From positions 7,041-71,040 of the IMG/VR virus record IMGVR_UViG_2713896899_000007: 64,000 bases of DNA; one strand, given 5' to 3'. Position numbers and translations under genes: made by a program. Below are positions 2,845 through 43,328 of this stretch, piece by piece. The DNA comes from a virus (taxonomy: Duplodnaviria > Heunggongvirae > Uroviricota > Caudoviricetes). The notes under the pieces are model-generated. The model searched no databases, was not told the origin of the DNA, and was given only the letters and a program-made list of their open reading frames with translations. Each line of letters begins with the position of its first letter. The stretch's first letter is position 1.

Positions 2845-3535
2845 ACCGCGTAGCTCCAATAAATCCGCCAAAATGGATCACACCGTCGGCAAAATAATTC
2901 CGACGCGCATTACAGGCGTCATAACGTTTTGTGCAGTAATCCGCACCAGACATAGACGTCTGCTGGTTATTTTTGTCGAAATATGGACCGGTATAGCCGC
3001 ATTCTGGCCCTCGGTATTTCCACGGGCAGGTGTTTTTAATGATCTGACGATACGGCAGTTGCACCCCCATCAAATCGAACACACTGGACAATTCAAACTC
3101 GACAACCTGATGAGTTTCGAGAGTTTTCTGTTCGATAAACCACATTTCATCCGGGAAATGTTGGTTTGGATCTGCTGTTGGGTTGCCGTCTTTAAAATTA
3201 ACGGCATCGAGGAAGCGAGCCAGCGTCATCTTGCGAATAATGCGGCAGCCAACAAGATCGTCGTTTGCCTGAACTTCCGCAGAGACGGTTCCGGCAAAGT
3301 TCGACACCTGAATTTTTGGACGTGGCAACGTTCCCTGGCCAGTTTTGTCAAAGCCTGATGCTTTGATTGGCCACGGCTCGTATGTCACTCCTTGCCAGAC
3401 GACCGGTTGCATCAGTTCGTTTGTTCCGGCATGGAAGAATAGCTTCCCCCCTGAAGTTGTGTTCGACATATCCAGTACGAACAACTCAATGAGTGCAGAG
3501 GGAGATAAGCTCTGAATATCAGCTTTAATTCCCAT
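2837..3535 (-). CDS. minor tail protein, lambda L-like
   Basis: ARFLDAVNFKDGNPTADP and the Cys cluster (CPWKYRGPECGY...C..C) resemble lambda L. ATG 3535 has an AAGGA RBS. Confidence 0.85.
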   Translation of the reverse strand: MGIKADIQSLSPSALIELFVLDMSNTTSGGKLFFHAGTNELMQPVVWQGVTYEPWPIKASGFDKTGQGTLPRPKIQVSNFAGTVSAEVQANDDLVGCRIIRKMTLARFLDAVNFKDGNPTADPNQHFPDEMWFIEQKTLETHQVVEFELSSVFDLMGVQLPYRQIIKNTCPWKYRGPECGYTGPYFDKNNQQTSMSGADYCTKRYDACNARRNYFADGVIHFGGFIGATRYG

Positions 3536-3617
3536 TGTTTCATCCTTGAAATAAGTAGGCGCTAACATCCTGTCAGCGCCACAATAATAGTAAATTAGTA
3601 CTTACTTATCCAGATAC

Positions 3618-3953
3618 TTAAGCCTCAAATACTTGTCTGAATGGAGCGGTTAATACTGCGTACCCTTGATATCGCTTGACCGTATGACTGTCGCATACAA
3701 CTACAATCCGTTTTCCTCTTGGATTAACCCAATAGAACGACTCAACACCTGCTCGCTCAGTCAGGAAGTCATCGATTGCATTAATTTCGTTGTATGATCT
3801 GGTAAAGGTTAACGACCATTCTTCTTTAATACGATTAAGACCTTGAGCCTGTCGCTGCTCGTAGTCATCACCAAAATTAAGTACCGTTACATTCGGTTTT
3901 ACGCTTTTTTCAGATTCGTAATCTGGATACCAATTAAACGTTTGTCTTTCCAT
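3618..3953 (-). CDS. minor tail protein, lambda M-like
   Basis: 111 aa. FGDDYEQRQAQGLN and FLTERAGVESFYW align with lambda M as I recall it. Confidence 0.8.
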   Translation of the reverse strand: MERQTFNWYPDYESEKSVKPNVTVLNFGDDYEQRQAQGLNRIKEEWSLTFTRSYNEINAIDDFLTERAGVESFYWVNPRGKRIVVVCDSHTVKRYQGYAVLTAPFRQVFEA

Positions 3954-3995: not shown

Positions 3996-6900
3996 TTAGT
4001 TACGTTGAGTGTTTGGGTTGAGTGATCCGCCAGGGCGTTTTTCTTGAGCGATAGTCTCAAGTACGACGGCTTTCACCCGTTTAGCAGCATTGTTCCATAT
4101 GCTTTCTGTATCGCCGGATTCTGTCGTGCTACCGTCACTATGGACGTTGATCTCAATTGATACAGGAGAAAGAACATTTCCGCCTCCACTCATACCATCG
4201 GTACTGAGCGTTACAGGGATTGTTCGGCCATCAGGCAATGGAACATACGCCTCATTCATAGAACCTTCCCCAAACAACGCTAATTGAGGTGAGTTAGCAA
4301 TACCGCCTTTCTGGTATGCCCGGAGCGGGATCACGCCGTCTTTTCCGAATATTCCTCCATTTGCAAACTTCGGGATTGCAGGAATGCCTTTAGTTCCGTC
4401 AGCCACACTGCTAGTTGCGGTTTTAGCAGAGCTTGATGTCACACTGTCGAAACCACCACCTGCCCATACTGAAACCAACCCAGATGCAACTGTCGCGCCG
4501 AAATTCAACCACTTATTACCAGAGCCGGAAGCATTAGCTCCAAGCATTGCAAACGCGGCAGACAGAGCACCGGTAACAGAGCTGAGGTTCTGCATCGAGA
4601 AGATGGAATCCTTCACTGCTTTTGTCTCAGCATCTTTGGCTTCGGTGCTATCAAATAGCCCTGATACCCAGCTACCAATCGCATTTGTTGCTGTGCCAAT
4701 TGCGCTGGTGGTCTGCTGTGTCGTTTGCCCCAATCCAGTTACCGAACTGGACGTCTCCTTCGTGGCTTCTCCTACCGACTTGTCGCCGTTAACAGTGTTG
4801 CCCATTCGTACCCCTTGATTGGCAACGGCGGAAGCAACCCCGGTCAGCAAATTACCACTCTGTGAACTACCAGCTGCGGTGGTTCCCATCCCCAACATGT
4901 TCATTAGAGGCAGCGTGATCTGCGACTTCACGACCATATTGGTGATATCTTTCAAAATGGACTGAGACAGGCTGGAGAAGCTCATCTTCCCGTTAATAAC
5001 GAAATCAGTCAGGACATCAGTTAAGCCACTAAACAAATCAGTCCAGGTGCTTTCGATCTGCTCTGCCAGGTTTTCGTATTCCAGTGCCAACTTCTGCGTC
5101 GCAGTCCCCGTCTCTTTAATAAGCGCGGTATTGCCAGCAGCAATAAGTTGATTGATTTTCTTTGTATAAAGCGCCACGACTTTAGGATCAGACGCCTTAT
5201 CACGAAGTTCTATCAACGCTTTGAGATTGCGGTTGTAGGTGTCTTCGAAATCAGCAACTTTCTCTTCACGAGACGGCGTATAGCCAGCACTAATAATGGA
5301 ATCCGCCTCCGGTGCCCAAGTGGAGATCATCTGCTCAACATTGCGGCGATTAAACATCTCGCGATATTCAGGTGTCGCATTTTTGAGGTCCTCAAGACGT
5401 TTTTTCGCCTTGTCGATCATCTCTTGAGTGATGAACTCGTTAGGAACCGCATTAGCCAAATCTGTCAGCGATTTCGTTGTATCGCGAAGAGACTGATCAA
5501 ACGATACCGTAGCCTTAGAGCTTTCACCCATTTGCCCCATAAGCTGATCGGCTTTGTCCAGAGCCTTCTGGTATCCGGCTGCCAGTTTCTGTTGCGCTGC
5601 CTGTTCCTTCTTGGCCGCACGCTGCGAGGCGTTAGCTGATCGTTGGGCTGCTTTCTCGGCAGCTGCTGCATCCTGTTCACGAGCTTTAGTCAGTGCAGCA
5701 ATGGCTGCGGCACGCTCTTCATCGCTCATTTTCTCCAGAGAGCTGGCACTGGATGCTTTCTGCAAATTAAGCTGCGTCTTGAGTTGTTTAGGCCCAATAA
5801 TCGGCTTACCTTCGAAGTCCATCATCGGAGTGCCGTCAGGCAAAGTACGTTGATAAGTCGCAGAATCCATCTGGTTTCGCATATATTGCGCCAGCGCCTT
5901 CTGAGCTGCTTTATCAGTTGTACCTAACCCCAGAACAGTCCCCTGGTTTGACATTACGCCCTTACCAGTTTTGGCAGCGTTATCTCTCTCGAACTCTGCC
6001 TGAGTCAGTTCCTGAGCGACGACTTCCAAATTCTCCTGATAACCACGAATACTGCCTTGCAGTTTCTTGATCTGCTCGGTGTTTCCTTCCTTTTTCGCTT
6101 TTTCAAGCTGATCATTAAGAGTGGCTATTTGCCCCTCGACAGCATTCTTACGAGAAGAAAGTGAATCAACCAGTTTTTGCGCAGGCTCCAGATAGCTTTT
6201 GTTTACCGTTTCACGTAACGGTGCCAATAGTTTGTTCTTTTCGTCATCAGAAAGTGAATCGTCATCATTGATTTTTTGGATCTTCTCCAGAGCCTCTTGA
6301 CGAGCTTTAGCGAATGTTGCCGCAAAGTCTCTATTCTCTTCCCGTATTTTCTCTATCTGTGATTCTGCCGCATCTTTTGCAAGACGTTTGGCTACAGCAA
6401 TGTCTCCGCGTTCAATTGCCCCAGTAGTTTTATCGCGTTTCTTACGAAGGTCATTTAGCTCATTTTCTATACGCTTACGTTCATCCTGATTAATCTTTAC
6501 TGTAGTTCCGGCCATACCCGGCCCATAAACCACCTTTTCGCCAGATTTTAACTCTTGTTCCTTTTGCGTGATTTGTTGCTCAAGACGCGCTTTATACTCC
6601 GCCATCTGTGCACGTTTGGCCGCTGTCATCGCCTCTGGTATTTTCCTAATCTCGTCAACGACCTTTGAAGTTTCGCTGCGGAGCATGGTCATGTACGTGA
6701 TTAGGCCAGCAACAGCTACAGTGGCAACTGTAAATGCTGCCCCTATAGGGTTTGCTGCAATGAACGCCGTTAATCCAGCAAAAGCGCCTTTAAGCCCCGT
6801 AATCGCCCCACGGATGGCGAAAATAAGAGAGGGGATCGGAGCCAGCCCCATACGTGCCGCACGATTGAATCGAGTTACTGCTGTAGCGCCGAGGTTAAAT

Positions 6901-8582
6901 GGAGTCTGTATGGCGGTCGCCATCGTGGCAAAGGTGCTAACCATCTGGCTGCCAGCGCCAACTCCCCCCATGATCCCTGCTCGCATCAGTTTGAACGCAA
7001 CCATCGCGGCCACGACCTTACCGAGATTAATTACCAGCTCTTGGTTCTTTGCTAACCATTGAGCAAGCTGACGCAACCCATCGATTGCCGTCGTTAACCC
7101 CGAACCTAAAGAATTGGCAAACGAAATCCCTTCGGCGCTATTCATGATTGAAGCCAGTTCTTTCATCCCCTTTGATAGAGAATCCAGATATCCGGCCTGA
7201 CCAACTCGATCAGCAAATAACGTGAATGACGTCTGAAGTTGCGCCAGCGCACCTGTGTAGGTTTGCATCATGTCTTTCGCTGCGTTCTCGTTCTCCGCAC
7301 GCAGACCAACAAACATCAGAGACAACGCCTGCTTTGCCTCAACCGTACCGCTGGCAACGGCTTTAGTTAGTTCCCCCATAGTGATGCCTGCGGCGTCTGC
7401 CATTGCCTGCATCGCGTTAGGAACGGCTTCACCTAATTGCTGACGTAGCTCTTCCATTGACACGACGCCCTTACCGGACATCTGCTGAACGGCCACAGCC
7501 GCACGTTTCAACAGCTCACTATCACCACCAAAACGAGCAACGGAGTCCACCAGCGCCTTCAGAGAACCATCGGTTGGATCTAAGCCAGCAGAACGAAACT
7601 TCACGAAGGAGTCTGTTAACGCCTGCATCGCGAACGGCGCATTTTGAGCCATGTCTACGATGTACTTCATATCATCAGCGGCAGCCTGGCCAGGGTTGGA
7701 CTTCTCCTTATTCAACCCTCGAAGCATCACCCGCATACGTTCCATTTCGGCCGCAGCTTCAACAATAGGCTTCTGCCACCCAAACATGATGTCAGTAACC
7801 GTTCTGGCTGCATCTCCGATCTCGCCAAGCAGGAAAATGTTGCCACGAAGGCCAGAGAACATACCTCCTTCGTTATTTTTACCGCTGTGGCCAGAAGCGC
7901 CGCTACGCTGCCTGCTACCGCTACCACCATCGCCACTTCCAGATGTACGAACGCGTACCGGCTTGCTAATCAGTTGCTGACGTCCGATAACTTCGTCCAT
8001 CTGCTCACGAACCTTTTTCAGTCCCTCGGCAGCCTGACTCGTTGTGACACCCCAATTACTGAGTCGCTTCGTCGTGGTATTAAGGCGCGTATTCATGCCA
8101 CTCACGGACGCAGAGGCTTCTTTGACCTCCGTACCAAAGCGGCTTGCGCTTTTGCTTGCATAGGTCGCCCAATCAGAGAAATCATTTAGCTCTGATTGCA
8201 CTTTACGTAATGACGCGGTGAGTTTATCTACTGAAGAAGTTGTCGTATCGACGCGCTCAATCAGGGCTTTAAGACCAGAATTGAGGCTGGTGATGTTGCC
8301 ACGCATTTTACGCGTAGCATCTGAAGCAAGCTCAAAACCGGCAGCTACATCCTGTAGTTTATCTGCCGTAGAATCGAGCTTGCTTTCCAGAACGCCAATG
8401 ATACGGGCGACCGAACCCAAAGAGCGTTCAAAGGTTTGGATTTTTTGAGCAGGCTTTGTTACCTGCTCACCAAATCGAGTAAGCAGTTTCCCCGCACGAT
8501 CGATTGACGCTGTAAACTGTTTGTCTTCCAGCGACAGGATAAACTCTACGTTTTGTGACATTCCCTTGTCATCCTCTGCCAA
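3996..8582 (-). CDS. tail tape measure protein
   Basis: 1528 aa, coiled-coil rich with central hydrophobic/Gly-rich segments. Lies between the chaperone genes and the M-like gene. The start is ambiguous (TTG 8582 or ATG 8561). Confidence 0.9.
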   Translation of the reverse strand: MAEDDKGMSQNVEFILSLEDKQFTASIDRAGKLLTRFGEQVTKPAQKIQTFERSLGSVARIIGVLESKLDSTADKLQDVAAGFELASDATRKMRGNITSLNSGLKALIERVDTTTSSVDKLTASLRKVQSELNDFSDWATYASKSASRFGTEVKEASASVSGMNTRLNTTTKRLSNWGVTTSQAAEGLKKVREQMDEVIGRQQLISKPVRVRTSGSGDGGSGSRQRSGASGHSGKNNEGGMFSGLRGNIFLLGEIGDAARTVTDIMFGWQKPIVEAAAEMERMRVMLRGLNKEKSNPGQAAADDMKYIVDMAQNAPFAMQALTDSFVKFRSAGLDPTDGSLKALVDSVARFGGDSELLKRAAVAVQQMSGKGVVSMEELRQQLGEAVPNAMQAMADAAGITMGELTKAVASGTVEAKQALSLMFVGLRAENENAAKDMMQTYTGALAQLQTSFTLFADRVGQAGYLDSLSKGMKELASIMNSAEGISFANSLGSGLTTAIDGLRQLAQWLAKNQELVINLGKVVAAMVAFKLMRAGIMGGVGAGSQMVSTFATMATAIQTPFNLGATAVTRFNRAARMGLAPIPSLIFAIRGAITGLKGAFAGLTAFIAANPIGAAFTVATVAVAGLITYMTMLRSETSKVVDEIRKIPEAMTAAKRAQMAEYKARLEQQITQKEQELKSGEKVVYGPGMAGTTVKINQDERKRIENELNDLRKKRDKTTGAIERGDIAVAKRLAKDAAESQIEKIREENRDFAATFAKARQEALEKIQKINDDDSLSDDEKNKLLAPLRETVNKSYLEPAQKLVDSLSSRKNAVEGQIATLNDQLEKAKKEGNTEQIKKLQGSIRGYQENLEVVAQELTQAEFERDNAAKTGKGVMSNQGTVLGLGTTDKAAQKALAQYMRNQMDSATYQRTLPDGTPMMDFEGKPIIGPKQLKTQLNLQKASSASSLEKMSDEERAAAIAALTKAREQDAAAAEKAAQRSANASQRAAKKEQAAQQKLAAGYQKALDKADQLMGQMGESSKATVSFDQSLRDTTKSLTDLANAVPNEFITQEMIDKAKKRLEDLKNATPEYREMFNRRNVEQMISTWAPEADSIISAGYTPSREEKVADFEDTYNRNLKALIELRDKASDPKVVALYTKKINQLIAAGNTALIKETGTATQKLALEYENLAEQIESTWTDLFSGLTDVLTDFVINGKMSFSSLSQSILKDITNMVVKSQITLPLMNMLGMGTTAAGSSQSGNLLTGVASAVANQGVRMGNTVNGDKSVGEATKETSSSVTGLGQTTQQTTSAIGTATNAIGSWVSGLFDSTEAKDAETKAVKDSIFSMQNLSSVTGALSAAFAMLGANASGSGNKWLNFGATVASGLVSVWAGGGFDSVTSSSAKTATSSVADGTKGIPAIPKFANGGIFGKDGVIPLRAYQKGGIANSPQLALFGEGSMNEAYVPLPDGRTIPVTLSTDGMSGGGNVLSPVSIEINVHSDGSTTESGDTESIWNNAAKRVKAVVLETIAQEKRPGGSLNPNTQRN

Positions 8583-30773: not shown

Positions 30774-31085
30774 TCAGGCTATTGCCATCACTGATGCTCT
30801 CTGAATTTCTTGTTGGGCCACGCGGTTAACTTCCATCAAAGCCAGTTCGAGCTGATGTTCCGGCCACATTCTTTGAAATGCCACCCAGCCTTTTCCACGC
30901 TGGCGACGAACATTCATTACATAACGAGTAAAGGTGTTTTTATCGAAAGACACCGCTGTTTCACGGAACAGACGAATAGAGGTTCCATTGGCAACGATGT
31001 CCAGCAAAGTTAATTGAGCAACTAGCGCAGGCTTCTCTTTTCGCTTCTGGTCTTTGTCCAGACCAAGAACCAATGATTTTTTCAT
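30774..31085 (-). CDS. hypothetical protein
   Basis: ATG 31085 has a GGAG RBS. About 103 aa. Conserved promoter at 31095-31131. Confidence 0.55.
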   Translation of the reverse strand: MKKSLVLGLDKDQKRKEKPALVAQLTLLDIVANGTSIRLFRETAVSFDKNTFTRYVMNVRRQRGKGWVAFQRMWPEHQLELALMEVNRVAQQEIQRASVMAIA

Positions 31086-31094
31086 CACAACTCC

Positions 31095-31131
31095 GTAAAC
31101 AACTTGTTTTCTCAATGGCGTAAATAATACC
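31095..31131 (-). promoter_or_regulatory. conserved early promoter/leader element
   Basis: Minus strand reads GGTATTATTTACGCCATTGAGAAAACAAGTTGTTTAC. Confidence 0.55.
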
Positions 31132-31238
31132 AGTAAGAAAACGGCTACAAAGCATAATGATCAGGTGCATGATCGATATGCAGGTTCCTCCCTGCGGCTA
31201 TAGAGAAATTAAGCCAGCATTGCTGGCTTTGGTTGAGG

Positions 31239-31568
31239 TTACGCGAATACTTCAAGAAACTCCTGAACGTCCCAATGCTGGACAAGGTGAAGATAGACCT
31301 TAGAAATCACGTCATTCTCGCTATCGCATGTGAAGTAGTACTTCTGGCTGCGGTTGTATGTGTCCACACAAAATTCGCTCATATCCATAAAGTCAGCATC
31401 TTCTCCCATGTCGCAAATCATCAAAGCAGGTGCGTCATCACGAGTCATCAGCTCAAGCACCCACCGCGAATTGATCAGAGTGGAAGACCAACCTTCCAGC
31501 TCACAGAACTGGTCAAACTCTTTTTGAGTCAATTTCTTAATTTGGTTGATGTCGATATGTGCAAACAT
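31239..31568 (-). CDS. hypothetical acidic protein
   Basis: ATG 31568 has a TAAGGA RBS. ATG 31589 lies inside the promoter motif. Confidence 0.55.
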   Translation of the reverse strand: MFAHIDINQIKKLTQKEFDQFCELEGWSSTLINSRWVLELMTRDDAPALMICDMGEDADFMDMSEFCVDTYNRSQKYYFTCDSENDVISKVYLHLVQHWDVQEFLEVFA

Positions 31569-31578
31569 AAAGCAATCC

Positions 31579-31614
31579 TTAAACAACATGTTTTCTTATT
31601 GGTGTTATTATCGC
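31579..31614 (-). promoter_or_regulatory. conserved early promoter/leader element
   Basis: Minus strand reads GCGATAATAACACCAATAAGAAAACATGTTGTTTAA. Confidence 0.55.
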
Positions 31615-31928
31615 AATAACGCACAGGCGAAAAAGGATTTTATTCCGGTGAATGTGGTTTTGGCAGTGAGTTTTCAGGTTCAGTACCGAGTACACTTTTT
31701 ACATTATTCTGATTTAGTGGCCGAAGATGGCTGGTGGGCAGAATAATCCTCTCCCCGAAAACCTACTGAAATCGATTGTGACCCGCTGGCTGTCTGGCAC
31801 AATTACGCTGTAGCTGGGCATTCAGAGGGAATCCAGCGGTAAGTTCGCCTGCACGTGAGCGCCTCTCTTCTTACCGCACATTACAGGTGGGTAGCCGCAA
31901 CTCTCCCTCACGCTATACCGGTACGCCA

Positions 31929-32060
31929 CCGTTCCTGAACCGGCATCGAGCCTTTTCCCGAAATCCACACAGGCAACTCTACCGTTTCCCTGAAAATCCC
32001 CAGCCGTTCCCCGAAGGCAACCCAGCCGTTTCTGTAGCGGGATGCAGCCTTTCCCTGTAT
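31929..32060 (+). repeat. iteron cluster B, six copies phased at 22 bp
   Basis: Copy starts at 31929, 31951, 31982, 32004, 32026 and 32048. Consensus is cAGCCGTTTCCCtGAAAA. Confidence 0.75.
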
Positions 32061-32119
32061 GGACCGAAGGCTGACCGTAGGGGTGTTACGGGGGATAAAA
32101 TCAGGAGTTGAATAAATAC

Positions 32120-32990
32120 GAAAAAGGAGGCGACACCCCTACTTCCCTCTCCACTTATACATACCAGGCTTCTTCGCTATACATGTTGTGTTTTCTTCGT
32201 GTTTTATCTGTCTCAACCTCTCTATAGGCGTTAATGCTCACTCCTACCAGAACGTTCTATACGGCGACTATTTCTGTTGGTGGATTAGGTGTGTTGTTTT
32301 CTCTGTCGGTGTATGTGGTTTCGTTCGTTTTGCGGTGGTTCTTCTATGGGGTGTTCTCGTCGTTTTGGTGATTGTTCTTCTCCGTATATGGAGTAATGGC
32401 AGGTGGGCGATTGCTTTCGTTATTGTGTTTGAGTTGTTTGTCTGGAGTGTGTGAAAGGCTTTTGTAGTTATTCGTGTATTGGGTAATGGCGTTTCCCGTG
32501 ATTGTTATGTTTCGTGTCTTTTGGGATTGAGAGAAACCTTGCGGTTACAGGCTTCGTTGGGGTTTCAGTGATTCTGGTGTTTCTTCGCTGTTTGGGGAAT
32601 GGCGTGTCGTGGGTATCGCGCGTGTGAATGTTTTCGGATTGCCTGTGAAAGTTAGGTTGGTTATCCGGTAGCCTGGGAAGAAGAGGTGGGTCTTTTCGGT
32701 AGCCTGCCATAAAGAGGTTGGTTGTTTTTGGGAATGGCATGTGTGTTATTTAGTTGTTTTGTTATGCCTGAAAATAAGTTGTTTATATGGTTGTGTAACG
32801 CAACGGGAGCGATTTTGAGCGTGTGTTTTTGTTGGTAGTGTGTTGAGTCGTCTGTGGTGAAAATTGGACGCTGTGGAGCTGTCTGCTGCGTAGGATTACG
32901 GGTATAAGAAGTGATGTGTGAAAACGTCAATTTTTTAGACCAAATCGGGAGAAAGCGTTGATGTTTCGTTGATCTGTTATTTAGTTGTTT
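32120..32990 (-). ncRNA. candidate long C+A-rich untranslated transcript (hypothetical)
   Basis: A family promoter at 32974-33006 points into a stretch with no credible ORF. The plus strand is 72-85% G+T in the three 60-nt lines I counted. The ends are not defined. Confidence 0.25.
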
Positions 32991-33006
32991 TCTTATTGGT
33001 ATAAAC
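32974..33006 (-). promoter_or_regulatory. conserved early promoter/leader element with no downstream ORF
   Basis: Minus strand reads GTTTATACCAATAAGAAAACAACTAAATAACAG. A partial second copy lies at 32745-32765. Confidence 0.5.
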
Positions 33007-33136
33007 AACTGTAACCTATTGATATTTAAGGATGTGATTGCAGGCATGGAAGGGGAGTAGTGGCGATCAACGGATTCTTATAGAAAAGAATCAAATTGTG
33101 ACCGCCATTATCAACGGTTTGAATATGTTTGCAGAT

Positions 33137-33436
33137 TTACCAGTTCCAGCACTCAAGCCCTTCAACGACCGGCGCACCACAATCAAAATGTACAGAGTCA
33201 AAGCCTACATCAAGTACTTTCTGAATGTTAGCAATCGCGCCTTCGGATATACCATATCGACGCAAGTCGTCTTTCCAGACATCATCCTGTAACCCGGCGT
33301 GGACAATACAACCGCCATCAATTTGTGAAACCCAATCCAGCTCATTGCTTGCGATCATGAATCGGCGAGCATCTTCCTCTGATGTATGAGATGAACTGAT
33401 CAATGCCACCTGGTAGGCTTGGGTAATGTTCAACAT
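33137..33436 (-). CDS. DUF5983-like small protein (recollection of plasmid/prophage family)
   Basis: The ALISSSHTSEED...VHFDCGAPVVEGLECWNW pattern (ISTSH...HFD....L.G...W end) fits the family as I recall it. ATG 33436 has a GGAG RBS. Confidence 0.55.
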   Translation of the reverse strand: MLNITQAYQVALISSSHTSEEDARRFMIASNELDWVSQIDGGCIVHAGLQDDVWKDDLRRYGISEGAIANIQKVLDVGFDSVHFDCGAPVVEGLECWNW

Positions 33437-33447
33437 TTCAACCACTC

Positions 33448-33517
33448 CAAAACAAGTTGTTTTCTTATGTGGCTTATTATCTCTAACAACAAAAGGCAGA
33501 AAACAAATTGTTTTAGG
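33448..33517 (-). promoter_or_regulatory. early promoter with two AAAACAAnTTGTTTT palindromes flanking GATAAT
   Basis: Minus strand reads CCTAAAACAATTTGTTTTCTGCC...GAGATAATAAGCCACATAAGAAAACAACTTGTTTTGG. Confidence 0.6.
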
Positions 33518-33636
33518 TACTGTGTAAATCAGAAGGGATTGTGTCTATATGAAAATGCCCGGCGTGTTGCCGGGCATTGCGAAGAGAGGTTGTTTAATTA
33601 CTTAACCTGGTGGCCAGGTTTAGCACCGGCATCCGG
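33496..33636 (-). repeat. diverged copy of metG 3' end (12 codons + stop) + terminator + phage palindrome
   Basis: Aligns without gaps to 34364-34504 with 18 mismatches. The remnant encodes [12 protein letters not shown]. Confidence 0.9.
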
Positions 33637-34315
33637 CTGCAGGATGGGAGGTTACGTTCGCGCTATGTTGATATTCTGATTGACGCCATTTGTGCCAAAT
33701 CATCTCCTTATAGGATTCATATTGCGTTCGGTACTCTGGCTTCAAGTCAGATATGCCTTTATTCACTACCGCTCGTACGTTTACTAATAATTCGTGCTCA
33801 ATGCCTTTACTCTCTAAATATTCTACAACACCAGCATCGGGGCCAATTGCCCTGCCGTTAAAGACCATTTCCAGCATAAGCTCTGTTTCAGCAAAATAGA
33901 TAGGTGAGGAACCAGGTGCACACAGCTTAATAGCAGTAAGATTGTCCAACAGGTCGGCCAATTTAATCATTCGCGTCTGCATATCCAACGTCTTTTGCAA
34001 TTCGCGAACATTAATAATGAATCTCGCAAGACTATCGCCGTCGTCTGGTTTGGCAACGTTTGCCAGCGCCAGTACCATCTCAGCTACACGATTCCCGAAA
34101 TACTCGCGTACCATTTCGATAGTGATATGGGTATCTTCAATAACACCATGTAATAATGCAGCAGCCTGCATTTCGACAGTGCCTCCGTGCCAAGCAACAA
34201 TCTCACGCACAGAAACTGGGTGTGTAACGTAGTCTTCCCCCGTATATCTACGCTTCTTACCTACACCACCATACACTCCAACGGCAAACATATGAGCTTT
34301 ATCAACAATCGACAT
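33620..34315 (-). CDS. HD-domain (SpoT/Mesh1-like alarmone hydrolase family) protein, HD motif changed to HG
   Basis: GEDYVTHPVSVREIV...AALLHGVIEDT. Paralog of 42687..43328. ATG 34315 has a GGAG RBS. The C-terminal tail runs into the metG remnant. Confidence 0.75.
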   Translation of the reverse strand: MSIVDKAHMFAVGVYGGVGKKRRYTGEDYVTHPVSVREIVAWHGGTVEMQAAALLHGVIEDTHITIEMVREYFGNRVAEMVLALANVAKPDDGDSLARFIINVRELQKTLDMQTRMIKLADLLDNLTAIKLCAPGSSPIYFAETELMLEMVFNGRAIGPDAGVVEYLESKGIEHELLVNVRAVVNKGISDLKPEYRTQYESYKEMIWHKWRQSEYQHSANVTSHPAAGCRC

Positions 34316-34363
34316 AATTTGCTCCATTATTTTGTTAATACTGTTACTCTAACTGATAATAGA

Positions 34364-34504
34364 ACGCAGAAAACAAATTGTTTTAGGGGCTGAGTAAATC
34401 AGAAGGGATTGCGTCTATATGAAAATGCCCAGCAATACGCTGGGCATTGTGAAGAATGGTTGTTTAGTTACTTAACTTGGTGGCCTGGTTTAGCACCAGC
34501 ATCC
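34364..34504 (-). repeat. phage palindrome + metG terminator + metG 3' end (partner of 33496-33636)
   Basis: See the alignment for the partner repeat. The terminator stem is aatgcccagc/gctgggcatt (34422-34446). Confidence 0.9.
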
Positions 34505-36501
34505 GGGCTTAACAGGAAGATATCTTTCCCGCCGGGGCCAGCAGCCATCACCATGCCTTCGGAGATACCGAAGCGCATTTTACGCGGAGCCAGGTTAGCC
34601 ACCATAATTGTGTGACGACCAATCAGTGCCTGTGGGTCTGGATAAGCAGAACGGATGCCTGAGAAGACATTACGCTTTTCACCACCGAGATCCAGTGTCA
34701 GGCGCAACAGTTTGTCAGAACCTTCAACAAACTCCGCGTTTTCAATCAGCGCCACACGCAGGTCAACTTTGGCGAAGTCGTCAAAGGTGATGGTTTCCTG
34801 AATCGGGTCGTCAGCCAGTGGGCCAGTAACTGGCGCGGCAGTAGCTTTCACTTCTTCTTTGGATGCTTCCACCAGTGCTTCCACCTGTTTCATATCGATA
34901 CGGTTATACAGTGCCTTGAACGGATTCACTTTATGGCCCAGCAGCGGTTGCTGGATACCATCCCAGGTCAGTTCTGTATTCAGGAATGCTTCTGCACGTT
35001 CAGTCAGTTTCGGCAGTACCGGTTTCAGATACGTCATCAGCACGCGGAACAGGTTAATGCCCATAGAGCAAATCGCCTGCAGATCTGCATCGCGACCTTC
35101 CTGCTTCGCCACCACCCACGGAGCCTGTTCATCGACATAGCGGTTAGCCAGGTCAGCCAATGCCATGATTTCACGGATAGCTTTACCAAATTCGCGGCTT
35201 TCCCATGCTTCGCCAATCACTTCAGCGGCATCAGTAAAGGTTTTGTACAGTTGCGGGTCAGCCAGTTCGCTTGCCAGCACGCCGTCAAAACGCTTGTTGA
35301 TAAAGCCTGCATTACGGGAGGCCAGGTTAACCACTTTGTTAACAATATCGGCATTCACTCGCTGAACGAAATCCTCCAGGTTGAGATCGATATCATCAAT
35401 GCGCGAAGAGAGTTTCGCAGTGTAGTAGTAACGCAGGCTGTCAGCGTCAAAATGATTCAGCCAGGTGCTGGCTTTAATAAAGGTGCCGCGAGACTTGGAC
35501 ATCTTCGCACCGTTCACCGTCACATAGCCATGAACAAACAGGTTGGTCGGCTTGCGGAAGTTGCTGCCTTCCAGCATGGCAGGCCAGAACAGACTGTGGA
35601 AGTAAACGATATCTTTACCGATGAAGTGGTACAGCTCGGCGGTGGAGTCTTTCTTCCAGTATTCATCGAAGCTGGTGGTATCGCCGCGCTTGTCGCACAG
35701 ATTCTTGAAGGAACCCATGTAGCCAATCGGTGCGTCCAGCCAGACGTAGAAATATTTACCCGGCGCGTTCGGAATTTCAAAACCGAAGTAAGGTGCGTCG
35801 CGGGAGATATCCCACTGTTGCAGACCAGATTCAAACCACTCCTGCATTTTGTTTGCCACCTGCTCCTGCAACGCACCGCTGCGGGTCCATGCCTGCAACA
35901 TTTCGCTGAAAGAGGGCAGATCAAAGAAGAAGTGTTCAGAATCACGCATTACCGGGGTAGCACCAGAAACCACCGATTTCGGCTCGATCAGTTCAGTCGG
36001 GCTGTAGGTCGCGCCACAAACTTCACAGTTATCGCCGTATTGATCTGGCGCTTTACATTTCGGGCAGGTGCCTTTCACAAAACGATCCGGCAGGAACATG
36101 CCTTTTTCCGGGTCGTACAACTGAGAGATAGTGCGGTTTTTAATAAAACCGTTCTCTTTCAGGCGAGTATAAATAAGCTCAGACAGCTGGCGGTTCTCTT
36201 CGCTGTGCGTCGAGTGATAGTTGTCATAGCTGATGTTAAAGCCTGCGAAATCAGTCTGGTGTTCCTGACTCATTTCGCCAATCATCTGCTCCGGTGTGAT
36301 ACCAAGTTGCTGTGCTTTCAGCATGATCGGCGTACCGTGGGCATCGTCGGCACAGATGAAATTAACCTCGTGGCCGCGCATTCGCTGGTAACGAACCCAG
36401 ACATCAGCCTGGATGTGCTCCAGCATATGGCCGAGGTGGATTGAGCCGTTAGCGTACGGCAGCGCGCACGTCACCAGAATTTTCTTCGCGACTTGGGTCA
36501 T
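34468..36501 (-). CDS. metG: methionine--tRNA ligase
   Basis: 677 codons from ATG 36501 ([25 protein letters not shown]...KMSKS...). Near-identical to E. coli MetG as I recall it. The 43-codon upstream extension in the track is spurious. Confidence 0.97.
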
Positions 36502-36658
36502 AGTAGGCATTACTTCTTTGTAGTGAAAAGGGGCTTGATAGTAACAAAATGGCCTTATGTCTGCCATGTGATAACAGCATTTCTCATAAATGATTAAATG
36601 TCGTAGCTGGAGTACACTACAAGGCGACAATTGCGCAAATTAAAATAAAGGAGACGGG

Positions 36659-37759
36659 ATGAGCGAGTCCAAATCGCCGGATGCCCTGAGAGCAATGGTA
36701 GCCGGTACGCTGGCTAATTTTCAGCACCCAACCCTGAAACACAACCTGACTACGCTTAAAGCGTTACACCATGTTGCGTTGATGGATGACACACTGCATG
36801 TCGAACTAATCATGCCTTTCGTGTGGAATAAGCCTTTTGAAGACCTGAAAGAGCAATGTAGTGGTGATCTGCTCCGTATCACTGGCGCAAAGGCTATTGA
36901 CTGGAAGCTGTCGTACAACATTGCCACGCTTAAGCGCGTCAAAAACCAACCAGGCATTAATGGTGTTAAGAATATTATCGCCGTAAGCTCAGGCAAGGGC
37001 GGTGTAGGCAAATCGTCCACAGCAGTAAACTTGGCACTGGCGTTGGCTGCTGAAGGTGCGAAAGTTGGTATTTTGGATGCCGATATCTACGGGCCATCAA
37101 TACCAACCATGCTGGGCGCGGAAAACCAACGTCCAACCTCACCGGACGGTACTCACATGGCACCTATCATGTCTCATGGCCTGGCAACCAATTCAATTGG
37201 CTATCTGGTCACCGACGACAATGCAATGGTGTGGCGTGGACCGATGGCCAGCAAGGCGCTGATGCAGATGTTGCAGGAAACACTGTGGCCTGATCTGGAC
37301 TATCTCGTTCTCGATATGCCGCCGGGCACTGGTGATATTCAGTTGACGCTGGCGCAGAACATTCCTGTAACTGGTGCGGTTGTGGTAACTACGCCGCAAG
37401 ACATCGCGCTGATCGATGCGAAGAAAGGCATTGTGATGTTCGAAAAAGTCGAAGTGCCAGTACTGGGTATCGTTGAAAACATGAGTGTGCATATTTGCAG
37501 TAACTGCGGTCATCACGAGCCAATTTTTGGCACCGGTGGCGCACAGAAACTGGCCGAGAAATACAACACGCAGTTGTTAGGCCAAATGCCACTTCATATC
37601 TCTCTTCGTGAAGATCTGGATAACGGAACACCAACCGTTATTAGTCGTCCAGATAGTGAATTTACGGCTATTTATCGTGACCTCGCAGATCGCGTTGCTG
37701 CCCAAATGTATTGGCAAGGTGAAGTAATACCTGGCGAAATCGCATTCCGCGCAGTGTGA
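36659..37759 (+). CDS. apbC: Fe-S cluster carrier ATPase Mrp/ApbC
   Basis: AVSSGKGGVGKSS P-loop and a CSNCGHH motif. Divergent from metG as in the E. coli chromosome. Confidence 0.95.
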   Translation: MSESKSPDALRAMVAGTLANFQHPTLKHNLTTLKALHHVALMDDTLHVELIMPFVWNKPFEDLKEQCSGDLLRITGAKAIDWKLSYNIATLKRVKNQPGINGVKNIIAVSSGKGGVGKSSTAVNLALALAAEGAKVGILDADIYGPSIPTMLGAENQRPTSPDGTHMAPIMSHGLATNSIGYLVTDDNAMVWRGPMASKALMQMLQETLWPDLDYLVLDMPPGTGDIQLTLAQNIPVTGAVVVTTPQDIALIDAKKGIVMFEKVEVPVLGIVENMSVHICSNCGHHEPIFGTGGAQKLAEKYNTQLLGQMPLHISLREDLDNGTPTVISRPDSEFTAIYRDLADRVAAQMYWQGEVIPGEIAFRAV

Positions 37760-37762
37760 TAA

Positions 37763-37787
37763 AAAGGTGGTGCATTGCACCACCTAA
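37763..37787. terminator. bidirectional hairpin between mrp and humD-like gene
   Basis: aggtggtgca t tgcaccacct. Confidence 0.6.
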
Positions 37788-37796
37788 ACAGTTCTC

Positions 37797-38186
37797 CTAC
37801 ATCACAGGACAATCATCAAACTCGCCACTTCTTGCGTCGTTGATAATGTGAGTGATCACACCAAACACGGCATTGCTGCCCGTGCATCCATCGTCATCCT
37901 TTGGCAATGCTTCCTTCTTACCAGTTCTTAAATCCTCCAGATGCTGACGTGGATACTTCCGGTATCTTTTTACGCGATATTCCCCATCCAGAGCGCATAC
38001 AAGCAGAGAACCATCAACCGGGGTAAGTGAGGAATCGACCACCAGCAATGCGCCCTGCAATATTCCCTCACGATGATGGCTGTCAGCCGCTCTCATGAAG
38101 TAGGTCGCTGAAGGATGTCTAATTATCTGCTGATCAAGAGAAATACGGCTCTCAGCATAATCCGCCGCAGGAGAAGGGAAGCCCAT
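37797..38186 (-). CDS. humD: UmuD'-like S24 peptidase-fold protein lacking the cleavable N-terminus (phage P1 HumD-like)
   Basis: Starts MGFPSPAADY, which aligns to the residues just after the UmuD Cys24-Gly25 cleavage site. The Ser (ADSH) and Lys (VKRY) positions are retained. A LexA box lies upstream. Confidence 0.8.
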   Translation of the reverse strand: MGFPSPAADYAESRISLDQQIIRHPSATYFMRAADSHHREGILQGALLVVDSSLTPVDGSLLVCALDGEYRVKRYRKYPRQHLEDLRTGKKEALPKDDDGCTGSNAVFGVITHIINDARSGEFDDCPVM

Positions 38187-38202
38187 AGCGTTTTGCCCTC
38201 AA

Positions 38203-38222
38203 TACTGTTCATTTATACAGTA
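38203..38222 (-). promoter_or_regulatory. LexA (SOS) box TACTGTATAAATGAACAGTA
   Basis: Perfect CTG-N10-CAG with TA-rich spacer, 17 nt upstream of the humD-like ATG and overlapping -10-like TATACT/TATAAA. Confidence 0.8.
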
Positions 38223-38358
38223 TACATGAAAGAAGCTCACTCAGTGCAACTGATCGGTACATAGCACCAGACAAAGGAACATTATTTTCTCGAACAAGAA
38301 AAGGTAGAAAACAAATTGTTTAAGGCCACAGCTAGTGGCCTTAATGGAGAAGGGATGC

Positions 38359-38883
38359 TTATTGGCTATGGCTAAAAATCAAATGAGACACTTCATTTGG
38401 TTGTAGCTCGTCAAGATCCGGGGCCACAAAACCTTTTCCGAAAGACTTCACAAGTGATTCACCTGCCGCATCATTGTCACCTATTACGCGAAAGTCATAC
38501 GGCAGCATTGCCAGTTGACGACGTAATCCTGCTGAGAAAGTCGAACCTAACAGCGCCCACGAATTTCCGCCCGCGTTGTGCACTGCTGCACTTTTAAAAA
38601 TCGACTCAGTTATCCATATCGGTCCATCTTTTAAAGGAAGATAGGTTCCCCATAGTAGCTGTCTGCCGTGCGCACGTGTGAAATACCGGGCCATCTTCGG
38701 ATTGCTATGCTGCTTAGGAGCGCCTGGTCTGTATGTCTGATACCCGGCCAACATCCCATCAAACCTGTATAGAGGGAATGTAACAACTCCTTCGCTTTCA
38801 TCGATCCACTGTCTATATGGATGCACATCATGGCGGTAGTTACGAGTTAGCAAATGAGCTTCCAGCTTTCCAAATTTAGTCAT
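38359..38883 (-). CDS. Toprim-domain protein
   Basis: The ITESIFKS...VIGDNDAAGE pattern (E...DxD). ATG 38883 has a GAGGGA RBS. Confidence 0.6.
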   Translation of the reverse strand: MTKFGKLEAHLLTRNYRHDVHPYRQWIDESEGVVTFPLYRFDGMLAGYQTYRPGAPKQHSNPKMARYFTRAHGRQLLWGTYLPLKDGPIWITESIFKSAAVHNAGGNSWALLGSTFSAGLRRQLAMLPYDFRVIGDNDAAGESLVKSFGKGFVAPDLDELQPNEVSHLIFSHSQ

Positions 38884-42148: not shown

Positions 42149-42690
42149 TACGATGCCTCTAACTTGTCTAACTCTTTCAGCCCTTCACGTACCGCGTTCA
42201 CAATGCGTTCCAGATACTGGTATTTCGGGTTTGGTACCGTTGGCCAGTCGGCATACCACGGATCATCACCAAAGAGATTCAGTAGTTTGTTACCGACGCC
42301 GAAACAGCAGCAGCTTTCTTTTACGTCATCGGCGTTTTCCGCCTCGTCCCACATTTCGCGAGCCAGTACGGCGTCTATTTCTCTCTCTCTTCGTAACTTT
42401 ATGATTTCTGACTTCACGAAAAGCAGATTTGCATCGTTGTCATCGTCGACCGTGCTTCGCAGTTGAGGGTCGAAATAGCCGATTAGATACTCGTTGCTGA
42501 CCCGCTTAATGAACGTCTGCACATCATCACCGCCCATAGCAAACCAAGCCGCAGTCCACGCTTTTCCGTAGCAGGTGATGGTGATTCTTCCCTTACCAGG
42601 TTCGTAGTTTTCAATCATCACTCGAACCGGATCGAGGCGTTCCAGATCCGTCAGCACAAAGGAAAGAACATCTATTTTTTCGATCTTCAT
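42148..42690 (-). CDS. hypothetical protein
   Basis: ATG 42690 overlaps the HD gene stop (ATGA). GGGAGG RBS. Confidence 0.55.
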   Translation of the reverse strand: MKIEKIDVLSFVLTDLERLDPVRVMIENYEPGKGRITITCYGKAWTAAWFAMGGDDVQTFIKRVSNEYLIGYFDPQLRSTVDDDNDANLLFVKSEIIKLRREREIDAVLAREMWDEAENADDVKESCCCFGVGNKLLNLFGDDPWYADWPTVPNPKYQYLERIVNAVREGLKELDKLEAS

Positions 42691-43328
42691 GCAGCCTCCC
42701 ACGCGCTCCAGATCAGCGATTTGTGTTTTTCATAACGTTTGATGTGTACCGGTTTCAGAAGCGCAATACCTTCAGTGACTTTCGCCATTGCGCTTAATAA
42801 CAACGGGTGTTCTATACCTATCCTCTCCATGTACTCGACAACATCAGCGTTGGCACCAATCTCCTTCCCGTTAAAAAGTACGTCCAGCATCAGCTCTTTC
42901 TCTGCAAGGTAGATAGCTGAAAACTCAGGATCGCGACTCACGATAGAAGAGGTATTGTCGAGCAGGTCAGCCAGCTTGATCATGCGCGTCTGCATGTCGA
43001 GATTTTGCTCCAGCTCCCGGACATTGATGATGAAACGCTGTATTCGATTGCCGTCTTCTGGCCTTGCGATGTTGGTCAGAGCCTGAACCATTTCAGCTAC
43101 GCGCTCACCGAAGTGATCACGAACCATCTCTATGGTTACATTGGTGTCTTCGACCACATCATGCAGAAGCGCCGCGATTTGCATCTCCACGGTTCCGTCA
43201 TGCAATGCAACAATCTCTCGGACAGCAACCGGGTGGTTGATGTAGTCTTCGCCGGTATATTTTCTTTTCTGACCAACGCCACCATGAGCGCCAGCGGCGA
43301 ACATATGTGCTTCGGAAATACTAGACAT
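42687..43328 (-). CDS. HD-domain (SpoT/Mesh1-like small alarmone hydrolase family) protein
   Basis: GEDYINHPVAVREIV...AALLHDVVEDT...RMIKLADLLDN. The HD dyad is intact. Confidence 0.8.
   Translation of the reverse strand: MSSISEAHMFAAGAHGGVGQKRKYTGEDYINHPVAVREIVALHDGTVEMQIAALLHDVVEDTNVTIEMVRDHFGERVAEMVQALTNIARPEDGNRIQRFIINVRELEQNLDMQTRMIKLADLLDNTSSIVSRDPEFSAIYLAEKELMLDVLFNGKEIGANADVVEYMERIGIEHPLLLSAMAKVTEGIALLKPVHIKRYEKHKSLIWSAWEAA

Follow-up and report, generated by a model that had tools for sequence, protein, structure and literature searches.

Why would a phage carry the end of metG twice, with a gene for an HD-type hydrolase in between? The question is raised by a locus in a 64,000-nucleotide (nt) stretch of DNA from a member of the Caudoviricetes (IMG/VR record IMGVR_UViG_2713896899_000007, positions 7,041 to 71,040), which we will call the window. 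The window comes from an SSU5-like phage-plasmid of Escherichia coli. We will argue that recombination between phage-plasmids probably inserted a cassette with a second HD gene (HD') downstream of metG, and that this duplicated a module made of the metG tail, a hairpin, and a palindrome (PAL), leaving a mosaic junction. A previous analysis of the sequence alone (the original prediction) had described the repeat and had suggested either a former attachment or homology site at the 3' end of metG or the serial capture of metG tails from two hosts.

The element is a phage-plasmid with its own metG

Positions 32000–38500 of the window are 99.9% identical to the E. coli plasmid p009_B (NZ_CP048306.1). 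They are also 95–97% identical to about 190 non-mobilizable plasmids of 107–112 kb from E. coli, Shigella, and E. albertii (the matches at 96.5–97% include plasmids of S. sonnei) and to the phage records Cyrano, CMS-2020a, and PhiR41_1. The plasmids are circular. In the annotation of p009_B, genes for tail, capsid, portal, terminase, and ParB-like proteins are on one replicon with the metG region, and the gene order in the window is that of Salmonella phage SSU5. Given the near-identity to known plasmids and phages, the structural genes on the replicon, and the SSU5 gene order, the window is from an SSU5-like phage-plasmid with its own metG-apbC pair, and not from a chromosome with a prophage. 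The element has what characterizes this group: near-identity to known members, and phage and plasmid functions on one non-integrated replicon.

According to summaries of the literature, metG on phage-plasmids has already been described in SSU5-like elements of S. sonnei and E. coli (Tam et al. 2024 preprint, via PMC12452169), and a link between the metG region of SSU5-like plasmids and antimicrobial survival has been reported for Shigella (cited in PMC12452169). Cyrano (of LF82) is presented there as a characterized member of the family (PMC9928086).

The usual order of this region in the family, on the minus strand, is metG and its stop codon, a hairpin terminator, a 35-nt spacer, PAL, a leader, and a gene with the domain DUF5983. 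In about 160–190 sister phage-plasmids, the DUF5983 gene is directly downstream of metG, with a single unit of the repeat in the interval. In the window, HD' and a second copy of the module lie between them.

The repeat consists of two alleles of one module

Pairwise alignment of the two copies, which we will call A and B (Table 1), confirmed a gapless direct repeat: the copies are offset by 870 nt, and over 141 nt they differ at 18 positions and so are 87.2% identical. The original prediction had placed the second copy at 34364–34504, which is 2 nt off. Elsewhere on the plus strand of the window, the best match to copy A is 60 of 141 nt, so a chance origin of the repeat is excluded. The content of the unit was also described correctly: on the minus strand, it runs from the last 12 codons of metG and the stop codon through a 19-nt spacer, a 10-bp hairpin followed by UUUUCAU, and a spacer of about 35 nt to the palindrome gcagaaaacaaattgttttagg. 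As had been noticed, all three of the differences within the coding remnant (GCC/GCT, CCT/CCA, and CAG/CAA) are synonymous. Weaker similarity (about 55–60%) extends for about 39 nt to the left of the repeat, to 33457/34327. This is a family-level resemblance of phage-plasmid leaders and is not part of the duplication.

Copy A differs at just 1 of 141 positions from the single-copy allele of three relatives (L003, L023, and L025; L numbers are our labels for related loci), in which this sequence ends an intact metG gene. The terminator and coding remnant of copy A are found at 98.7–100% identity below annotated intact metG genes in many sister plasmids, and it is the commonest allele of the metG 3' end among them. 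Copy B differs from the allele of L017 at 6 of 141 positions, once a 5-nt hairpin loop is flipped. Among 20 single-copy alleles of the 141-nt segment, pairwise differences range from 0 to 20 (median 11), as compared to 18 between A and B; the genes flanking the segment are 94–100% identical across relatives. The differences between A and B are within the population's diversity at a highly polymorphic phage-plasmid locus, and the two copies are two population alleles. The proposal that the remnant descends from a different functional metG allele, instead of being a fresh copy of B, therefore stands, since copy A ends an intact metG in sister phage-plasmids. We also considered whether the single-copy alleles are simple chimeras with A on the left and B on the right, but we dropped this idea: they have several switches, and states that are in neither copy of the window.

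The hairpin is G+C-rich and folds stably in both copies; an 86-nt stretch of copy A that includes it folds at −31.6 kcal/mol (z −6.0). The stem was thought to differ between the copies by a compensatory change, and alignment and folding agree that this is a true pair: 33561 (G/A) pairs with 33571 (C/T). Copy B has an A-U pair at this place and an inverted loop. In 15 alleles, read as metG-sense RNA, the variable pair (33561/33571 or 34431/34441) is GC in 4, GU in 7, and AU in 4, and it is never unpaired. The wobble pair GU, which is the intermediate of a compensatory change, is thus the commonest state in the population. On the opposite strand, it would be an A-C mismatch. A pair that holds in metG-sense RNA, but not in RNA of the opposite strand, would agree with a terminator that acts on the metG transcript. 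The hairpins presumably terminate transcription, and PAL presumably regulates it. On the plus strand, the loop of copy B (34434–34438) reads AATAC, whereas its reverse complement, GTATT, forms the loop in otherwise similar single-copy alleles (L011, L017, and L018); this is a small hairpin-mediated inversion. The inverted loop is found only in copies linked to HD' and in 0 of the 20 single-copy alleles.

The two-unit arrangement is rare. There is one unit between metG and the DUF5983 gene in L002, in L003, and in 18 IMG/VR loci. The order metG-HD'-DUF5983 is found in the window, L001, L010, L037–L044, L127, and L128. HD' with a second unit is limited to two sublineages, represented here by the window and by L001, and is present in 2 of the 161 complete E. 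coli genomes that have the phage-plasmid region and in 2 PLSDB plasmids. The original prediction had called for a survey of relatives for HD, remnant, and DUF5983 in this configuration, as a candidate phage attachment site (attP). The configuration is certainly there, as metG-HD'-DUF5983 is the order in each of the 15 HD'-encoding contigs and in the two metagenome hits; its reading as attP did not hold up, as discussed below. Between the two HD' lineages, the A copies differ at 11 of 141 positions (which are polymorphic in the population) and the B copies at 5. So there was allelic exchange once the cassette had formed.

The junctions of the cassette

The best relative of HD' outside of the cassette is only 74% identical at the amino acid level and 79% identical at the nucleotide level. 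It is in L035, which together with L036 represents a metG-less relative that is known from Logan contigs only. Positions 4929–5644 of L035 (the HD gene and its upstream sequence) correspond to 34387–33672 of the window, with 79% nt identity over 718 nt; for the resident HD gene of the window, the value is 74%. The homology takes in the leader and almost the whole gene, to its last codons at 33672. The outer edge of PAL at 34387, where this homology stops, marks the right-hand crossover.

At its other end, the cassette has a short piece of another gene. In L035, the HD gene is followed by a gene for an 88-amino-acid lipoprotein-like protein (lipo88), and window 33673–33638 matches L035 5913–5948 (32 of 37 nt by blastn, E 1e-5). 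The stump keeps its reading frame (YQHSANVTSHPAAG vs. YQHSANVNPHLAPG). This implies that about 268 nt were deleted at a tyrosine codon (TAT/TAC), a loss that would have taken away the stop codon of HD' and put the stump in frame behind it. At 33637, the stump is joined to codon −12/−13 of metG, with at most 2–3 nt of microhomology. Both HD' sublineages, which are 96–97% identical to each other, keep the junctions, although the downstream junction of L001 has a 4-nt indel. Because the left junction is a 36-nt stump of a neighboring gene, we attribute it to illegitimate joining between phage-plasmid genomes and not to site-specific recombination.

A consequence of this joining is that, as was originally claimed, the HD gene takes its stop codon from the metG remnant. 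The TAA at 33620–33622 lies within the remnant, in a frame that differs from that of metG (..GCC GGA TGC CGG TGC TAA instead of ..CCG GAT GCC GGT GCT AAA), and HD' has a non-native C-terminal tail of 16 residues that ends there. In L001, HD' ends in the metG frame instead, via a change from AAA to TAA.

Table 1. Features of the window, in window coordinates. Single positions are given for the PAL sites.
Feature	Positions	Strand	Evidence or remarks
Repeat copy A	33496..33636	-	PAL1 33498-33516; 35-nt spacer; hairpin 33554-33578; 19-nt spacer; metG stop and 12 codons 33598-33636
Repeat copy B, the true end of metG	34366..34506	-	PAL1 34368-34386; spacer; hairpin 34424-34448; metG stop and 12 codons 34468-34506
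HD' gene, 231 amino acids	33620..34315	-	ATG with GGAG ribosome-binding site; open reading frame open to 34327; Pfam HD_4 2e-15
Native leader and PAL of HD'	34316..34387	-	Homology to L035 ends at outer PAL edge 34387
36-nt remnant, 3' part of the 88-amino-acid lipoprotein-like gene (lipo88, PHROG 7757)	33638..33673	-	Next after HD in L035
DUF5983 gene	33137..33445	-	Pfam PF19419 E 7.6e-11; PHROG 5003
PAL2, second palindrome copy	33447..33465	.	Abuts GGAG ribosome-binding site of DUF5983; motif search
metG, phage-plasmid-borne, intact, 677 amino acids	34468..36501	-	Pfam tRNA-synt_1g 4.6e-166; p009_B annotation
apbC (mrp), divergent from metG, as on the chromosome	36659..37759	+	Pfam ParA/NUBPL 2.4e-102; p009_B annotation
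Resident HD gene, SSU5_099 ortholog	42687..43328	-	Intact LLHDV; preceded by hairpin and degenerate PAL-like site
PAL sites	19029, 26636, 29251, 30191, 31094, 33447, 33498, 34368, 38306, 46289, 47003, 47732		Motif search

HD' is probably an inactive alarmone hydrolase

The window holds two HD_4 genes of the RelA/SpoT-hydrolase type, the resident gene and HD'. HD' is clearly a member of HD_4 (PF13328; 57.3 bits, with a cutoff of 27.2). Its protein is 63% identical to the resident paralog and 74% identical to the homologue P0002. All 8 of the homologues outside of cassettes, including the resident paralog, have LLHDVxEDT, and a profile of HD and HD' matches the RelA/SpoT homologue (RSH) hydrolases in the Protein Data Bank (7qpr, 1vj7, 5vxa, and 7qoe; E from 1e-16 to 1e-10), with HDxxED aligned at AALLHDVIEDT. 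But codons 56 and 57 of HD' (34145–34150) encode H56-G57 (LLHGV) in the window and N56-G57 (LLNGV) in L001 (where HD' is at 3129–3821). The metal-binding aspartate has been lost in both sublineages and the histidine in one of them, so neither has the catalytic His-Asp dyad. With HG or NG in place of HD, the hydrolase activity of the cassette copy is doubtful. We conclude from the sequences that HD' is probably a second, inactive alarmone-hydrolase-like gene. With its catalytic aspartate gone and a junk C-terminal tail, it looks degenerate.

PAL sites and boundaries of modules

PAL (AGAAAACAAnTTGTTTTCT) has 12 sites in the window, while 0.05 are expected. Most of them are 10–120 nt upstream of the starts of minus-strand genes. 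PAL also occurs in L035, and the blocks of homology between the window and L035 begin at PAL sites. PAL looks like a putative dispersed operator, and a motif at the boundaries of modules, in SSU5-like phage-plasmids. A bolder proposal is that PAL is the operator of an undescribed SSU5-like regulon and a preferred crossover for swaps of single-gene cassettes between co-resident elements, with HD' kept under some purifying selection as a non-catalytic decoy or regulator that binds alarmones, instead of being a duplicate in decay. We consider this bolder proposal to be unlikely.

A proposed history of the insertion

We propose that the cassette, which would comprise PAL, the leader, HD', and the 36-nt stump of the following gene, came from a different SSU5-like lineage and was placed between metG and DUF5983. 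Its upstream junction would be a short-homology crossover within the roughly 22-nt PAL sequence that was common to both partners, and at its downstream junction, the stump would have been joined illegitimately to metG at codon −12/−13. Since the point of return lies 141 nt upstream of the point of exit, the module of metG tail, terminator, spacer, and PAL would then be present twice. Copy B would end metG and head HD', copy A would end HD' and head DUF5983, and each of the three genes (metG, HD', and DUF5983) would still have a hairpin and a PAL leader after the insertion.

There are two ways in which two different alleles might have ended up at one locus. A deletion derivative, with HD' and the stump joined to a metG tail of allele A, might have recombined at PAL with a phage-plasmid that carried allele B. 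Or a template switch or unequal exchange might have formed the structure in one step, followed by allelic replacement. Both routes fit, and they are not separable here. The anatomy of the locus, its two junctions, the identities of the alleles, the rarity of the arrangement, and its absence from chromosomes can be read directly from the data, whereas we infer the order of events.

Several observations weigh against this account, or against parts of it. The match to the lipo88 stump is short (32 of 37 nt), and tblastn on its own gives E of 0.06. Searches for an intact arrangement of HD' and lipo88 at high identity returned only contigs that carry the cassette; with the nearest relative at just 79% identity, the donor is inferred instead of being observed. 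The polarity of the change, gain as opposed to ancestral presence and loss, is unproven. Also, the HD' genes of the window and L001 differ by 8 synonymous and 6 non-synonymous changes. Under neutrality, more replacements would be expected, so HD' may still be under residual selection and need not be a dead gene. As for the hairpin, a shuffle control for covariation was not significant (131 of 500 shuffles reached the observed score, which comes from one pair only). Simple consensus scans of the minus strand called no sigma-70 promoter and no terminator, so the case for regulatory roles of PAL and the hairpin comes from position, folding, and one covarying pair.

Alternative explanations

Could the unit be an attP-like attachment or homology site at the 3' end of metG, or could the tails have been captured from two hosts? 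A gene whose 3' end is present twice, with synonymous differences only, bears the signature of elements that integrate into coding genes (as for e14 and phage 21 at icd), and our repeat does resemble this. But the chromosomes lack the corresponding sequences. The chromosomal metG of E. coli is about 90–92% identical, has different codons among its last 5, and loses its similarity exactly at the stop codon, beyond which there is a different terminator. None of 5,423 chromosomal metG places in E. coli has the terminator, PAL, or HD sequence, and 33560–34440 has no chromosomal place in 5,426 complete E. coli genomes. The original prediction had suggested a search for the remnant's donor lineage among the metG alleles of Enterobacterales. 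When we compared the chromosomal metG loci of 80 species of Enterobacterales (from a scan based on MetG), the downstream module of terminator and PAL was in none of them, and the nearest metG was 92–94% identical. The exact 30-nt metG remnant is also absent from 185,579 species-representative genomes. An attP should lie next to a gene for a site-specific recombinase and should share a core with a chromosomal attB and with integrated elements. Across window positions 1–50000, PGAP has annotated neither an integrase nor a recombinase in the plasmid with 99.9% identity (the annotated neighbors are DUF5983, HD, metG, apbC, an S24 peptidase, and a toprim protein), and we found no shared core in chromosomes. 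With no chromosome that has the sequences and no integrase annotated in 50 kb, both the attachment site and the two-host capture are unsupported. Furthermore, both alleles sit on intact metG genes of phage-plasmids and so belong to the phage-plasmid gene pool, and the junction holds a stump of a neighboring phage gene. We regard both of these ideas as very improbable.

Another alternative is that the two-unit form with HD' is ancestral in the metG-bearing phage-plasmids of E. coli and that the single-unit form arose from it by repeated homologous deletion. Direct repeats of 141 nt at 87% identity could support RecA-mediated deletion. Also, the flanking sequences do not make the HD' lineages nearest relatives of one another (the 3' end of metG in the window is 98.7% identical to that of L002, which lacks HD', and 95.3% identical to that of L001), and the single-copy alleles combine A-like with B-like states in a mosaic. 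However, if HD' were ancestral, it is surprising that it is in only 2 of 161 genomes and that none of the 20 single-copy alleles has the inverted loop of copy B. The commonest single-copy allele is A-like at every site that distinguishes A from B except for the last one (33628), so the deletion crossover would have to fall in the final 20 nt or so. And the tail of HD', with its lipo88 stump and its illegitimate junction, is a derived state. Overall, ancestral presence seems quite unlikely to us. The structure is almost certainly not an artefact of assembly or sequencing, such as a repeat that was collapsed or wrongly joined, or two identical copies with errors in them. It is found in many independent assemblies (2 complete plasmids, 3 further NCBI assemblies, several Logan contigs, 2 metagenome contigs, and 1 IMG/VR contig), and two sublineages that are just 96–97% identical have the same junctions. 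We regard insertion by recombination between phage-plasmids as the probable explanation.

Other observations on the region

The metG of the plasmid has 92–94% nt identity to chromosomal metG genes of the Escherichia clade. For apbC, we compared about 450 nt at the 5' end, and the best chromosomal apbC that we found is only about 80% identical. So the members of this "captured" pair may have separate histories. The metG that is closest to the plasmid's (93.8% nt, 99% amino acid identity) is in L046 (CP170191.1), a record with the title Enterobacter hormaechei strain B56 chromosome; the metG of the Escherichia sp. representative L045 is less similar, at 92.4% nt identity. The record L046 may be mislabelled, or it may have an Escherichia-like metG. 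In L127 (PPYF01370191.1, 11064–11785), an L001-like contig from a metagenome, metG has an apparent internal deletion of 227 nt (query 1535–1761 is absent), which would make the plasmid-borne metG a pseudogene there.

At 32200–33100 (or, more widely, 31565–33137), the plasmid with 99.9% identity lacks annotated genes over about 1.5 kb. The strands are strongly asymmetric there, with GC skew of +0.29 to +0.49 and AT skew of −0.35 to −0.54, and there are many short degenerate direct repeats. We found no tandem repeats in 31000–35000. The gene-free region is conserved at 75% identity in the metG-less L035 (8814–10070). An Rfam scan of the whole window had no match. One possibility for this region is a long non-coding RNA; another is that it is origin-like.

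Small genes of other kinds are inserted around DUF5983 or past the S24-peptidase gene in other relatives (L017 2226–2504, L003 2621–3355, and L032–L034). This stretch is a hot spot for the gain and loss of single genes. The relatives of variable length (H43, H44, and H48) have extra genes elsewhere. None of the inserts in all of these relatives is flanked by a duplicated metG-tail unit.

Significance and comparison with known systems

The locus is a well-resolved case of how phage-plasmids shuffle single genes: a crossover at PAL combined with an illegitimate join would yield a duplicated module of gene tail, terminator, and operator. It also holds a caution, in that a duplicated gene tail with only synonymous differences need not mean an attachment site. 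In practice, the unusually polymorphic region downstream of metG and the rare metG stumps could confuse the calling of copy number or alleles for plasmid-borne metG. PAL and the nearby skewed region with few open reading frames merit separate attention.

As a protein family, HD and HD' are similar to the RSH hydrolases and small alarmone hydrolases with known structures, with the HDxxED motif aligned, and the annotation of SSU5_099 agrees with an RSH-type hydrolase. Unlike those enzymes, the cassette copy has HG (in the window) or NG (in L001) where HD is expected. As an element, the window belongs to the same family as the SSU5-like phage-plasmids of S. sonnei and E. coli and Cyrano, and it has the same metG-apbC cargo. 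The summaries of this work (PMC12452169 and PMC9928086) do not mention an HD' cassette or a duplicated metG tail, and compared to the described SSU5-like phage-plasmids, the cassette is limited to two rare sublineages.

Prophages such as e14 and phage 21, which integrate into a coding gene (icd), also give rise to two synonymously differing 3' ends of a gene, one of which is a stump. But here there is no integrase and no chromosomal partner, both copies are on one extrachromosomal phage-plasmid, and the alleles come from sister plasmids.

A further parallel is with the morons of phages, and with modular exchange at conserved intergenic boundary sequences, as in the lambdoid phages HK97, HK022, and HK620. 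Like a moron, HD' is an additional gene that has an upstream control region of its own, is followed by a hairpin, and sits between genes that are adjacent in relatives (in this case metG and DUF5983, in L002, L003, and the 18 IMG/VR loci), and one of its junctions lies in a short conserved intergenic sequence, PAL, that is common to many genes of the element. HD' brought along its native PAL and leader, although no sigma-70 consensus was called on the minus strand. Unlike a moron, the insert is a paralog of a resident gene instead of foreign cargo; its insertion duplicated 141 nt, including the tail of a neighboring coding gene; and a third gene is cut short at its other junction, which is illegitimate. 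The locus is real and well explained but ordinary phage-plasmid mosaicism, a recombination scar of a known kind.

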